Shown: piece by piece, positions 25,928 through 28,900 of the stretch
How positions within the stretch are numbered: position 1 is the first letter of the stretch
Layout of the letters: each line of letters opens with the position of its first letter
Source of the DNA: Candidatus Woesearchaeota archaeon
Lineage (GTDB): Archaea > Nanobdellota > Nanobdellia > SCGC-AAA011-G17 > JACPIM01
Direction of reading: 5' to 3'
DNA length: 64,000 nucleotides
Assembly (NCBI GenBank): GCA_016188045.1
Contig: JACPIM010000004.1
Span: 8,493-72,492 of the forward strand
Notes under the pieces: generated by a model
Database searches by the model: none
What the model saw: only the letters and a program-made list of their open reading frames with translations
What the model was told of the DNA's origin: nothing
Made by a program: the position numbers and the translations under genes

Positions 25928-28900
25928 ATTTTTTTAAAATCATATCGGGCGTTTTATAATAAGCAGTTATTACATTATGTACTTCTTTAAATCCAGTTAT
26001 CCCGGCTTTATACATCCTCATTAACAATAATGTTCTTTTCCTAAATTCATCCATTAATTTTTCCCTGCTGATTCCGTAGTGCGTTGTTATTTTATCAAAG
26101 GCTCTACTGTCCATCTTCAAATAAGATTTTCCATGGGATTTAAAGTAAAACTTATCACTTTTTGGATCCCAAATAAAAGGCTCATTTATGGTTTCTTCAC
26201 CGGCTTTATCCCCAATTTTTACAATTTCTATAATTTTTTTCACTTTTCTTGTTTCTTTTCCTTCTTGTTTAATATTTGCCATAATACAAACAACATCCAA
26301 GCTATTTACTAAAGTGGGACTCAAATTAATAGGTGGTGATTCTAATCTTCTTATCATAGTATGCAAATCCTCGGCATGCATAGTTCCCATACTAGGATGA
26401 CCTGAATTATGCAATAACACACCGCCAAAACCACCAATAAAGTTCTGGGTTCCTGGAACACATAAATCATAAACAGGTTCTGGTTTTTTTAATATTTTTT
26501 TATTAATTTTAAGCACAATATCTAAATAAAGATCATTAACGTAATTGCTACTTTTTGGTTTACCAATCTTTTTCATAATAATTCTTTTACCTATTATTTT
26601 AACATTTTCCAAAAAAACATCTTTCTCCCATTTAGAGAAAAACAAAACTTCATAATCTATTTTCTTCCTACCTTTTCTTTTTCTTTTACCTATCCTAGCA
26701 ACTATACCATAAACAAGTAATAACTGAGCAACATCATTAGCTAATTCCTTGGATATGGTATAATAACCAACATCTTTGGTCAAACTGCCATCACCAGTAT
26801 ATAACCCAGATAACAAAGCACTTATTTTTTCTTTTGATAAACCAAAAACAAAATCTGGAATATGTTTATTCTCTTTTTTACCAAAATGCCTTTTCAAAAA
26901 TTCAAATAAAACTCTATGATTAACTGAAAGTTCTATACTCTTTCCAAAACCATAAGTTATTCTTTCTTTAGCATCGCTGCCAGTAACTTTCCTTATGCAA
27001 TGTCTCATATCGTCTAAAATTTCTTTATTTAGATTATAAAATTCTATTTTAGAGTTATTCTCCCCGTCATCCAAAGAACCTTCAGAAACATAATACCCGC
27101 ACAACCTCAATAATTCGGGAGTTAATTTTAAATTCCCCATGAAACCCTTACTTCTGTTATCATACTTAAAAATTAGATCATCTTTATTATATTTAAGTCC
27201 TGCTTCTTTCATTAACCTAACAAACTTCTCTGCTCTCAAAGAAGAGGGTTTACTTCTTTTAAAATTGGAATAATAATCAGTTATGGAACAAACTCCACAA
27301 ATTTTACTTGCCTTGTAATAACCTAATTTATGAGAAGCTTCTTTAACATGATCAGGAGCAAATACTCTAATATCACTTAGATATTCCATAATGTCTATTT
27401 CATCAAAATCACAATATCCGCAAGGTATTTTGCTTGGTATTAACACTCTATCGCCTTTTTTTATTTTTTCAGCCTCAATAGGGATTATTCCATTATCATA
27501 ATTAAACAATGAATGATTCTTGCTAATAGTAATTTTTCTGCCTTTTTTAGTAATTATTTCATATAAAACTTTTTGTCCTGAATGCCTTATCATAAATTTA
27601 ACAGGCATTATTTTTACATTACCTAATTCATCATAAGTTATTACTTTATATTTTATATCCTTTTTCATATCTTTAATAGAAATTCTTTTGGGATGCTCAT
27701 CATTTAACACCATAATCTTTTCATCTCCTCTAATAGAACTCATCCCCTGGAATAATACATAAGCTTCTGCTCCACGGATTTCTCCAACAACAACATAATC
27801 AGGTCTTTGCCTAAAACTCTCTTTCAGTAAATCAAATAAAGTAACTTCCCCTTGCTTTGTTCCAACCAAACTAGTTATTCCAACGCCTTCTCTTGCTACA
27901 CTAGGCAACCAATTTTCGTGCAGTAAATTTAATTCACGAGTATCTTCAATAGAAACAATCCTGGCCTGTGGAGGAACAAAAAAAGCAATTGAATTCAAAA
28001 AAGAAGTTTTACCAGTTCCAGTTCCACCAACAATTAAAACATTAGACTCATATTCTATTAATAACCATAAATAAGCCAAAACTTCAGGACTTACAGTTCT
28101 AAACTGCATTAATTTCACAGGACTCCAAGGATCAACTGTAAACTTTCTAATAGTAAATGTAGGGCCTTTACTAGTTATATCTTGAGTATATGTGGCATTC
28201 GCACGACTTCCATCGGGCAAAGCACCATCTAATAATGGGCTGGCATAACTTATGTATTTCCCACATTTCTGAGCTAATTTTTCAACAAGACTAGTTAATT
28301 TTGATACATCATTATACAAAACATTAGTTCTTATATTCCTATATTTTCTGTGAACTATATAAACTGAAGAATTCACACCATTACATTCAATATCTTCAAT
28401 GAAATAATCCCTCATTATGGGTTCAATCTCATTCAATCCAACAAAATCCCTATAAATATAATACATTAATTTCAATAAAGTATTTTTATTTACCTTTATC
28501 CTATACTCATTTAACAAAACCTTAACATTCTCTTCTAAATATTTTATAATCACCTCAGAACTTTTTATTGCTATAAAGCTTATATTGATCAATTCTTCAA
28601 TCCCTTTCTCTAAAATAGCTAAAACTCTCTGCTCATCAGAATTTAAAATAGGTTCTTCAACTTGATAAATTAATTCATGTCTTTTTTCATCCCAAAAAAT
28701 ATGCGCATATGCAAATGGTGCTATCAAAGGATACCTTATATTTAATTTAGTCTTGTCTTTAACTGTAGGTAATTCAAAAATTTGTTGCTTAAGATTTATT
28801 TTAAACTCTGTTTGTGCTTTTTGTTCTGGTATTGTTTTTTCCGTTAACGCTTTTGTGTTAGCAAAAGAGTTAGTTTTTGCCTCTTTTTTTCTAAATAACA

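Follow-up and report, generated by a model that had tools for sequence, protein, structure and literature searches.

A predicted class 1 LAGLIDADG intein preceding the His box of a FlaI-like pilus ATPase in a Woesearchaeota-type archaeon, and its relation to the SMC intein of the same contig

The gene for a FlaI-like type II/IV secretion ATPase in the genome of a Woesearchaeota-type DPANN archaeon very probably carries a standard class 1 intein with a LAGLIDADG homing endonuclease, which is inserted in frame just before the His box, belongs to a family of allelic inteins widespread in DPANN archaea and has no special kinship with the intein in the SMC gene of the same contig. The stretch of DNA analysed, here called the window, comprises 64,000 nucleotides. 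An intein in an archaeal ATPase of the VirB11/FlaI family is of a kind already documented, to which the window intein adds one member.

The precursor ORF, which encodes the ATPase and one intein, extends over 25914..28934 on the minus strand (1006 aa as listed). Judging from the orthologues, which begin MLFRKKE, the true start is probably the ATG at 28901, the annotated GTG being 11 codons too early. The intein (444 aa, precursor aa 400-843) occupies 26406..27737 on the minus strand and is flanked by the host residues FQGMS up to aa 399 and SGHPSMG from aa 844; the first-pass annotation had placed a 444-aa insert there, between FQGMS and SGHPSMGTMHAE, and the ORF translation agrees with it to the base. 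The intein begins with SIRGDEKIMVL and ends with GGVLLHN, followed by Ser, and its residue set is Ser1, His443-Asn444 and Ser+1. Splicing block A (SIRGDEKIMVL) lies at 27705..27737, with the Ser1 codon at 27735..27737. Block B (GRKITISKNHSLF, 27504..27542), located from the sequence and the allele alignment, contains the TxxH motif in the form S72-K-N-H75; most alleles have Thr where Ser72 is found here, and Ser is accepted at block B position 7 (PMC2807308). Blocks F and G (PVYDLCVPGTQNFIGG FGGVLLHN, 26406..26477), with Asp424, His443 and Asn444, were located from the alleles and the NCBIfam intein_Cterm profile. Two LAGLIDADG motifs were assigned by allele conservation: motif 1 (LLRLCGYYVSEGSL, 27072..27113), whose end GYYVSEG carries the acidic Glu219, and motif 2 (ISALLSGLYTGDGSL, 26781..26825), whose end LYTGDG carries Asp316. 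All of these elements are on the minus strand. Across 11 allelic inteins Ser1, His75, Asp424, His443 and Asn444 are invariant, as are G214, Y215, Y216, S218 and G220 of motif 1 (E219 being at least 90% conserved) and G315, D316 and G317 of motif 2.

Profile searches agree with this assignment. The precursor scored 70.3 bits with Pfam Intein_splicing (PF14890; cut-off 35.8), 63.4 bits with LAGLIDADG_3 (PF14528; cut-off 22.5) in two stretches, 36.6 with NCBIfam intein_Nterm (TIGR01445; cut-off 24.5) and 24.0 with intein_Cterm (TIGR01443; cut-off 15.6). Scores above threshold, an in-frame junction, the nucleophile Ser1, block B, the block F Asp, the C-terminal His-Asn and the Ser at +1 together characterize a class 1 intein, and the earlier identification as a LAGLIDADG intein was borne out by thresholds and retained catalytic residues alike. 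The AF2 model of the intein (pLDDT 84, pTM 0.86) has the pseudo-dimeric alpha-beta-beta-alpha-beta-beta-alpha fold which, with the two motifs and their acidic residues, characterizes a double-motif LAGLIDADG endonuclease; this domain matched I-DmoI with a TM normalised to target of 0.6-0.7, and also the endonuclease domains of PI-PkoII and PI-PfuI. Whole-chain fold matches were PI-PkoII (E 5e-25), the Tli and Pho VMA inteins, PI-PfuI and PI-SceI. By sequence and by fold, the best solved relative is PI-PkoII (Thermococcus kodakarensis DNA polymerase intein 2, PDB 2CW7; 72.3 bits, TM 0.67), which has the same architecture of HINT domain, accessory domain and double LAGLIDADG endonuclease, but resides in another host gene and at another site and shares about 20% identity over the structural alignment. 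The AF2 secondary structure is mostly helical in intein aa 106-205 (27123..27422 on the minus strand), the stretch linking the N-terminal splicing lobe to the endonuclease; from the model and its fold match with PI-PkoII and PI-PfuI, this region is probably an accessory DNA-binding domain of the stirrup/DRR-like type.

The host belongs to the PilT-VirB11 superfamily of type II/IV secretion ATPases. Its N-extein (27738..28901, minus strand) runs from the N-terminal domain to FQGMS, as delimited by the Pfam T2SSE match at aa 228-392 (PF00437; 77.8 bits, cut-off 24.9) and alignment to 2OAP and 4II7, and contains a Walker A motif (GGTGTGKTS), an Asp box (IVSIEDTRE) and a Walker B region (DYVVVGEIRG), labels established for this ATPase family. 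The C-extein (25914..26405, minus strand, stop codon included) starts with the Ser+1 codon at 26403..26405 and contains the His box SGHPSMGTMHAE. The spliced host sequence aligned to A. fulgidus GspE (2OAP; 382 bits) and FlaI (4II7; 254 bits) with no gap across the junction, and scored 163 bits with CpaF. With the NCBIfam equivalog of the archaellum motor FlaI/ArlI (NF058587) the host scored 405 bits, below the cut-off of 550, and no FlaH/G/F families were found near it in a Pfam scan of the window ORFs. Because of this score and because its neighbours are pilin-like and platform genes with no FlaH/G/F, the host is not identified as the archaellum FlaI/ArlI and is more safely called a 'FlaI-like pilus ATPase'.

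The neighbouring genes, all on the minus strand, make up a type IV pilus-like locus. Pfam and NCBIfam assign the N-terminal and C-terminal halves of a FlaJ/TadC/UpsF-like membrane platform protein, with one T2SSF domain each, to 24869..25927 and 23934..24797. Five small genes in a row at 28971..32348 (28971..29549, 30043..30618, 30628..31122, 31100..31594 and 31551..32348) have N-termini of class III (type IV pilin-like), e.g. KRG-ITPLIATLLL, and the one at 30043..30618 matches Pilin_N, arch_flag_Nterm and UpsA. Downstream of the platform genes, two more genes (23068..23934 and 22582..23067) have a pilin-like N-terminus (MNKKG and a hydrophobic stretch) and no Pfam match. The earlier naming of the host as a FlaI/TadA-like pilus ATPase is supported by these neighbours and by the T2SSE score. 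The Pfam scans revealed no other pilus ATPase in the window.

Among the relatives of the host both occupied and empty sites were found. Two intein-free orthologues (P0023 and P0025; 85% and 77% identity to the host) read FQG(L/M)SSGHPS(M/L)GTMHAE, which is exactly the predicted spliced junction, the corresponding peptide of the window ATPase being GAEAYVLFQGMSSGHPSMGTMHAEDLHTMIR. An empty-site DNA allele (L001) reads GAAGCTTATGTGTTGTTTCAAGGCCTAAGT and AGCGGTCACCCAAGTATGGGAACTATGCAT on the two sides of the junction. An intein at the same site was present in nine of the 120 best extein homologues, one of the nine being a 155-aa mini-intein without endonuclease, and in 37 GTDB species representatives. 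The close relatives with and without the intein are short metagenomic contigs. The same-site alleles in DPANN archaea are 43-81% identical to the window intein end to end; those in DPANN MAGs, e.g. P0024 and the Ca. Woesearchaeota contig CAYSNL010000023.1 (L003), have the identical insertion point, FQG(M/L/A)(S/A)-S...HN-(S/T)GH, a length of 439-448 aa, Ser1, HN and Ser or Thr at +1, and the same LAGLIDADG motifs. The exact window sequence was absent from the collections searched, in which the best matches were 80-81% identical. A word-indexed search with the intein missed the closest alleles, e.g. P0024 (80% identity), which were recovered by the extein search and by exhaustive search. Public records of same-site alleles are labelled 'LAGLIDADG family homing endonuclease' or 'flagellar protein FlaI'.

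In the FlaI-like pilus ATPase family, inteins occupy at least six sites (a-f), all in a stretch of about 150 residues in the ATPase core, and a single gene of DPANN archaea can hold up to four. Site e, GE(I/V)RG-S...HN-(S/T)EA, is located about 10 codons upstream of the His-box site f. In the window gene site f is occupied and sites a-e are empty; the nearest genome (L003) has a second intein at site d, unlike the window gene.

The preferred reading is as follows. The intein is inserted just before the His box, [S/T]GH, of the ATPase, and the precursor of 1006 aa (or 995 aa) would be translated whole. An N-O acyl shift is predicted at Ser1, followed by attack of Ser+1 on the ester to form a branched intermediate; cyclisation of Asn444, helped by His443, would free the intein, and an O-N shift would yield FQGMS-SGHPSMGTMHAE in a normal ATPase of about 551 aa. 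As a conserved catalytic motif is interrupted by the insert, the ATPase would almost certainly not function unless spliced. In homing, intein-free alleles would be cut at the FQG(M/L)S-SGH codons by the released intein or by its endonuclease domain, and the intein would be copied in by repair. Indirect signs of homing are the dN/dS of 0.08 on the endonuclease domain and the patchy distribution, with empty and mini-intein alleles. The intein appears to have been inherited with its host gene since the split from the nearest sequenced relatives: against the L002 allele, dS is 0.95 for the intein and 1.0-1.2 for the exteins, a similarity which fits co-divergence. The dN/dS values for the same comparison, 0.127 for the intein, 0.080 for its LAGLIDADG part and 0.044-0.071 for the exteins, are rough because dS is near saturation.

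It is unlikely that the element is a decaying remnant which has lost splicing or endonuclease activity, the gene being effectively a pseudogene or the intein fixed and immobile. Endonuclease-less mini-inteins do occur at the same site (P0119 and the second intein of P0166), and the similar dS of intein and exteins suggests vertical inheritance over recent invasion. However, the frame of 1006 codons stays open in DNA of 30% GC, neither the splicing residues checked nor the two catalytic acidic residues have been lost, the rest of the pilus locus is intact, and the dN/dS of the LAGLIDADG part indicates constraint like that on the host ATPase.

Co-option as a conditional switch, in which an environmental or host-contact cue would tune splicing and so gate pilus assembly in an episymbiotic archaeon, is very improbable. 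Insertion within a catalytic motif would suit such a role, the host being the sole pilus ATPase observed in the window, as would purifying selection and vertical inheritance between the two closest genomes, and conditional protein splicing has been documented for other archaeal inteins, e.g. that of RadA. Against it, the close relatives P0023 and P0025 manage without the intein, which is thus dispensable; Ser nucleophiles allow no redox switch; and a patchy distribution that includes mini-inteins is what a selfish homing cycle classically produces.

Hardly credible, finally, is close paralogy with the SMC intein, i.e. that one lineage moved between the ATPase and SMC genes in the window genome or its recent ancestors. 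The first-pass annotation had called the two inteins clearly paralogous, one family colonising two genes, and had proposed pairwise alignment and phylogeny as checks. The comparator is a LAGLIDADG intein of 524 aa in the Walker A loop of SMC (6604..8175, plus strand, within the SMC ORF 6490..11493), with the junctions GPNGSGK-SLSGDATVL...GIFVHN-SNIVDGL. Both inteins do end in HN followed by Ser, as had been stated (GGVLLHN and GIFVHN); both are class 1 with Ser1, HN and Ser+1, match the PF14528 endonuclease family and are similarly low in GC (0.275 against 0.282), whereas the SMC intein is 80 aa longer and belongs to a P-loop site family. The Ser1/Ser+1 pair is common to the whole f-site family and is thus not a trait of the window genome. 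BLASTP aligned 151 aa of the endonuclease domains at 29% identity (E 8e-13) and gave two short splicing-block matches as well. The pairwise similarity is therefore significant, but it is at the background level for any two PF14528-type inteins. The block pairs quoted as evidence of resemblance, KIEFYNLNKEILDDM / RIEFVNADKEILEDF and LLLVYGIVAR / LLLRFNIIAR, indeed co-align in BLASTP; one of these motifs, however, also occurs in PI-PkoII, as VKLYNEDPEVLDDM.

Scores and identities place the pair among unrelated inteins. With phmmer --max it scored 52.6 bits (default filters gave no match), against 72.3 bits for PI-PkoII from a Thermococcus DNA polymerase, 63-143 bits for AAA-ATPase inteins and 85.9 bits for the 150th best match of an exhaustive search with the ATPase intein, which recovered 687 public cluster representatives at E<=1e-10; more than 687 outscore the SMC intein. 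On trimmed global alignment the pair is 25.9% identical. For the ATPase intein, identity is 24-30% with unrelated site families, rises to 34% with the family at the neighbouring site and reaches 52% with its own alleles; taking both methods, identity between the two window inteins is 26-29%, against 43-81% for alleles, and each of the two has same-site relatives in that range in other genomes. The hosts retrieved in the SMC intein search were SMC, DUF87/HerA-like and DnaB proteins, and a T2SSE host was absent from its results. An NJ tree (Kimura distances, a few saturated ones giving NaN, and 200 bootstraps as sole support) grouped the SMC intein with inteins of SMC and Walker A sites, and the ATPase intein with those of the f and e sites, i.e. 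in different site-specific clades. Since the closest relatives of the ATPase intein occupy its own site, those of the SMC intein sit in SMC, HerA-like and DnaB proteins, and the similarity of the pair is at LAGLIDADG background, the two are, on sequence comparison, to be regarded as separate site-specific lineages rather than one family in two genes, and paralogy is already largely refuted. Pfam scans of 26 larger window ORFs revealed no third intein, nor did phmmer --max on all six-frame ORFs of at least 60 aa, in which the only other match (11 bits, 44507..44848) was treated as noise.

In-frame fusion of a free-standing endonuclease gene was rejected: the endonuclease lies between HINT blocks A and B on one side and F and G on the other, and the host motif is restored once the insert is removed.

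Inteins of related ATPases provide a context for the window intein. The host of the KlbA inteins is a VirB11/TadA-like secretion ATPase and, like the window host, archaeal; the Mja KlbA mini-intein, of about 168 aa, has no endonuclease. A PDB sequence search with the ATPase intein gave no KlbA structure at E<=0.01. In KlbA inteins, which splice by the class 2 mechanism, residue 1 is Ala and residue +1 is Cys (PMC2807308), a signature not shared by the ATPase intein, which has Ser1 and Ser+1, is of class 1 and contains a full endonuclease. Table 3 of Novikova et al. 2016 (PMC4760082) counts 21 inteins in ATPases of the VirB11/FlaI family (COG0630) and five in CpaF (COG4962); those catalogued there resemble the window intein in residing in a catalytic motif of P-loop NTPases of the same superfamily. 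Literature searches on inteins in connection with FlaI, pili or DPANN taxa yielded nothing beyond affinity-tag uses and papers on other subjects.

Tentatively, the DPANN pilus ATPase could be seen as an unusually dense and highly polymorphic intein hot spot, in which the f lineage would be sister to the e lineage; this relationship would imply a jump of an intein between adjacent sites in one gene. No description of such a hot spot was found in the literature searched.

The gene should be annotated as one intein-containing pilus ATPase; several public records instead have a 'LAGLIDADG endonuclease' or a gene in fragments. The two inteins of this small genome represent independent site-specific lineages rather than intragenomic spread, and that of the ATPase would be one more selfish element lodged in a motif essential to the motor of a surface appendage, here of an episymbiotic archaeon. 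Six sites with sister lineages at adjacent positions could serve as a natural system for the acquisition of target sites by inteins.

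The minus-strand ORF at window positions 25914..28934 encodes a 1006-aa intein-containing precursor of a FlaI-like type II/IV secretion (T2SSE) ATPase, in which FQGMS ends at residue 399 and SGHPSMG starts at residue 844. The 444 residues between them correspond exactly to window 26406..27737 (-); they begin with SIRGDEKIMVL, end with GGVLLHN and are followed by Ser. The first-pass annotation had placed the insert within these boundaries, had noted that it and the intein of the SMC gene both end in HN before a Ser, and had quoted two pairs of similar motifs from the two; because the coordinates match exactly and both motif pairs align to each other in BLASTP, this description is accurate. 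Pfam matches in the precursor were T2SSE (77.8 bits), Intein_splicing (70.3 bits; cut-off 35.8) and LAGLIDADG_3 (63.4 bits, two stretches), and the NCBIfam intein N- and C-terminal models both scored above cut-off. In an alignment of the insert with ten same-site inteins of other genomes, the splicing residues Ser1, His75 (block B), Asp424 (block F), His443 and Asn444 are invariant, as are Gly214, Tyr215, Tyr216, Ser218, Gly220, Gly315, Asp316 and Gly317, and Glu219 shows at least 90% conservation. The AlphaFold2 model derived from the same-site alignment (pLDDT 84, pTM 0.86) resembles the bifunctional intein endonucleases in fold, the top solved-structure matches being PI-PkoII (E 5e-25), the Tli and Pho VMA inteins, PI-PfuI and PI-SceI; its central domain also matched I-DmoI. 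The closest sequence relative in the PDB is PI-PkoII (72.3 bits), followed by TFIIB mini-inteins. The insert is a real, correctly delimited, standard class 1 LAGLIDADG intein from a widespread site-specific family. The GC content of both inteins is slightly lower than that of their exteins, i.e., the host halves (ATPase, 0.282 vs 0.310; SMC, 0.275 vs 0.298).

Once the insert is taken out, the ATPase can be aligned over its full length with Archaeoglobus fulgidus GspE (2OAP, 382 bits), FlaI (4II7, 254 bits) and CpaF (163 bits). Against the NCBIfam FlaI model it reaches 405 bits, short of the cut-off of 550. The junction lfqgmssghpsmgtmha of the spliced sequence aligns without gaps to LFQAMSTGHASYSTLHA, which puts the insert directly in front of the His box ([S/T]GH) in the core of the secretion ATPase. 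Orthologues start with MLFRKKE, corresponding to window 28901, and the mechanical ORF adds 28902..28934 (-) from an upstream GTG; by this comparison, the listed GTG start is probably 11 codons too early, the true start probably being the ATG at 28901.

The SMC intein used for comparison comprises 524 aa (window 6604..8175 (+)) in the Walker A loop of SMC, a large plus-strand ORF (6490..11493), with the boundaries GPNGSGK↓SLSGDATVL...GIFVHN↓SNIVDGL. The ATPase intein had been called clearly paralogous to it. Pairwise similarity is indeed significant: in BLASTP, 151 aa of the endonuclease domain align at 29% identity (E 8e-13), and two short stretches match in the splicing blocks. Six tests nonetheless mark it as background homology. 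HMMER reports the pair at 52.6 bits with all filters off and not at all under default filters, and a Thermococcus polymerase intein outscores the SMC intein against the ATPase intein (72.3 vs 52.6 bits). When the ATPase intein was searched exhaustively against 1.84 billion representatives, 3,706 matches reached E<=1e-3 and 687 reached E<=1e-10, and the match ranked 150th still had 85.9 bits; hosts among the best 150 of the 3,706 included 51 T2SSE ATPases and a single SMC (P0275, from another organism). The reciprocal search with the SMC intein returned SMC hosts (43-67% identity), then HerA/DUF87-like proteins (about 870 aa), then bacterial DnaB inteins, and no T2SSE host. In cross-scoring, proteins retrieved with either intein had median scores of 104 or 93 bits to the intein that retrieved them vs 47 or 29 bits to the other intein. 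In a global alignment of 39 inteins the two share 25.9% identity; the ATPase intein has a mean identity of 52% with its own alleles, 34% with the site e inteins of the same ATPase, 30% with inteins of AAA-ATPases and 24% with those of site c and of SMC. The NJ tree of this set (200 bootstraps) groups inteins by insertion site (site f, that of the ATPase intein, 81%; e, 95%; f+e, 80%; SMC with the Walker A site, 73%) and places the window's two inteins in different parts. PI-PkoII carries VKLYNEDPEVLDDM at the position of one quoted motif and LLLRFGI-type motifs recur in many of the unrelated inteins inspected; the quoted motifs are generic. The Ser1/HN/Ser+1 arrangement is common to the whole site f family and not specific to this genome. 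The similarity of the two inteins is background homology, and the claim of a close paralogy is not supported.

Homologues of the spliced ATPase numbered 7,644 at E<=1e-30, and most of the best 120 lack an intein, measure 520-560 aa and come from MAGs of Nanoarchaeota or Woesearchaeota. At the junction, the two nearest intein-free homologues have the sequences FQGLSSGHPSMGTMHAE (P0023, 85% identity) and FQGMSSGHPSLGTMHAE (P0025, 77%), exactly the predicted ligation product. An insert occupies this position in nine of the 120; eight of the inserts are full-length, with 440-448 aa, and the ninth, in P0119, is a 155-aa mini-intein without endonuclease. DNA of an empty allele (L001) and an occupied allele (L002) was recovered, the L002 intein sharing 80.6% DNA identity with that of the window. 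Among GTDB species representatives, 37 loci with ...HN↓(S/T)GH were found in Woese-, Nano-, Pace-, Aenigmat-, Micr-, Parv- and Iainarchaeota; alleles with an intein at this site already number in the dozens in public records, where the annotation often goes no further than 'LAGLIDADG family homing endonuclease' or 'flagellar protein FlaI'. Such a pattern, with some sites occupied, others empty and others degenerated, is typical of a homing intein. Two proteins, P0168 and P0172, carry a different intein lineage (28-29% identity) at the His-box site (FQAIA↓SVTGDTP...ALHN↓TGH), that of P0168 falling outside the main site f clade, which suggests a second independent invasion or a very deep divergence.

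Relative to L002, dN/dS is 0.127 for the whole intein, 0.080 for its LAGLIDADG part and 0.044-0.071 for the exteins, with similar dS (intein 0.95, exteins 1.0-1.2), all figures being approximate because dS is near saturation. By these values the endonuclease is constrained as much as the host ATPase, and between the two genomes the intein seems to have co-diverged with its host.

The window is archaeal (RtcB with archease, ABCE1, archaeal-type housekeeping genes; GC about 30%), and its closest species representative is a syntenic Candidatus Woesearchaeota MAG with 77-81% DNA identity. The neighbourhood of the ATPase agrees better with a type IV pilus-like locus than with an archaellum: it holds seven small genes with class III signal-peptide-like N-termini, and Pfam found no FlaH/G/F families there. 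Beside the ATPase, two ORFs of 352 and 287 aa (23934..25927 (-)), with one T2SSF domain each, match the N- and C-halves of FlaJ/TadC/UpsF-like platform proteins (ArlJ/UpsF profiles). Since the N-terminal half is likewise separate in the nearest genome (L003; 350-aa ORF), the split looks genuine and not the product of an error. Elsewhere, RtcB tRNA ligase (423 aa) is directly followed by its activator archease (149 aa; 19609..21368 (+)), a pairing typical of archaea. The alanyl-tRNA synthetase ORF (1936..3696 (+)) has only 586 aa, covering the catalytic core and SAD domain; typical archaeal enzymes are longer, and the C-terminal part may be missing or separately encoded.

Inteins in VirB11/CpaF-type ATPases are a known kind, as the survey of Novikova et al. 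2016 counts 21 in archaeal VirB11 (COG0630) and five in CpaF ATPases (PMC4760082). Related ATPases carry the KlbA inteins, which belong to class 2, with Ala1 and Cys+1 (PMC2807308), unlike the ATPase intein of the window. The literature searched contained no paper on inteins in DPANN pilus ATPases. The ATPase intein adds a new member to a site-specific family that is widespread.

The longest ATPase relatives (1,450-2,140 aa) carry two to four inteins each, and six insertion sites were read from them: a (GPxF↓C...NIFD↓T(I/V)RKFT), b in Walker A (GSGK↓C...HN↓TS), c (SIED↓S...HN↓TRE), d (LPDG↓S...CHN↓SR), e (GE(I/V)RG↓S...HN↓(S/T)EA) and f, the His-box site. Site a corresponds to window aa 257 (GPTF↓TIRKFT); in P0143, P0147, P0179 and P0001 its intein apparently starts with Cys and ends in ...AGNKPMNIFD↓T instead of His-Asn, suggesting a non-canonical C-terminal Asp or misplaced boundaries. 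In the window only f is occupied, whereas in the nearest genome both d and f are. The orthologous ATPase there (1505 aa; L003:392-4909, Ca. Woesearchaeota CAYSNL010000023.1) has a second intein of roughly 520 aa (LPDG↓SIDHSEPF...ICCHN↓SRANATY) at the position of window ~28207, where the window reads LPDGSRANATY. About 10 codons separate sites e and f, whose inteins form sister groups in the NJ tree; in one protein, P0166 (1170 aa), only 11 extein residues, SEAFVLFQGMA, lie between a site e intein of full length and a mini-intein at site f (...VVLHN↓SEAFVLFQGMA↓SVDGDEK...). This apparent multi-site hot spot in the ATPase of the relatives is more noteworthy than the window intein as first framed.
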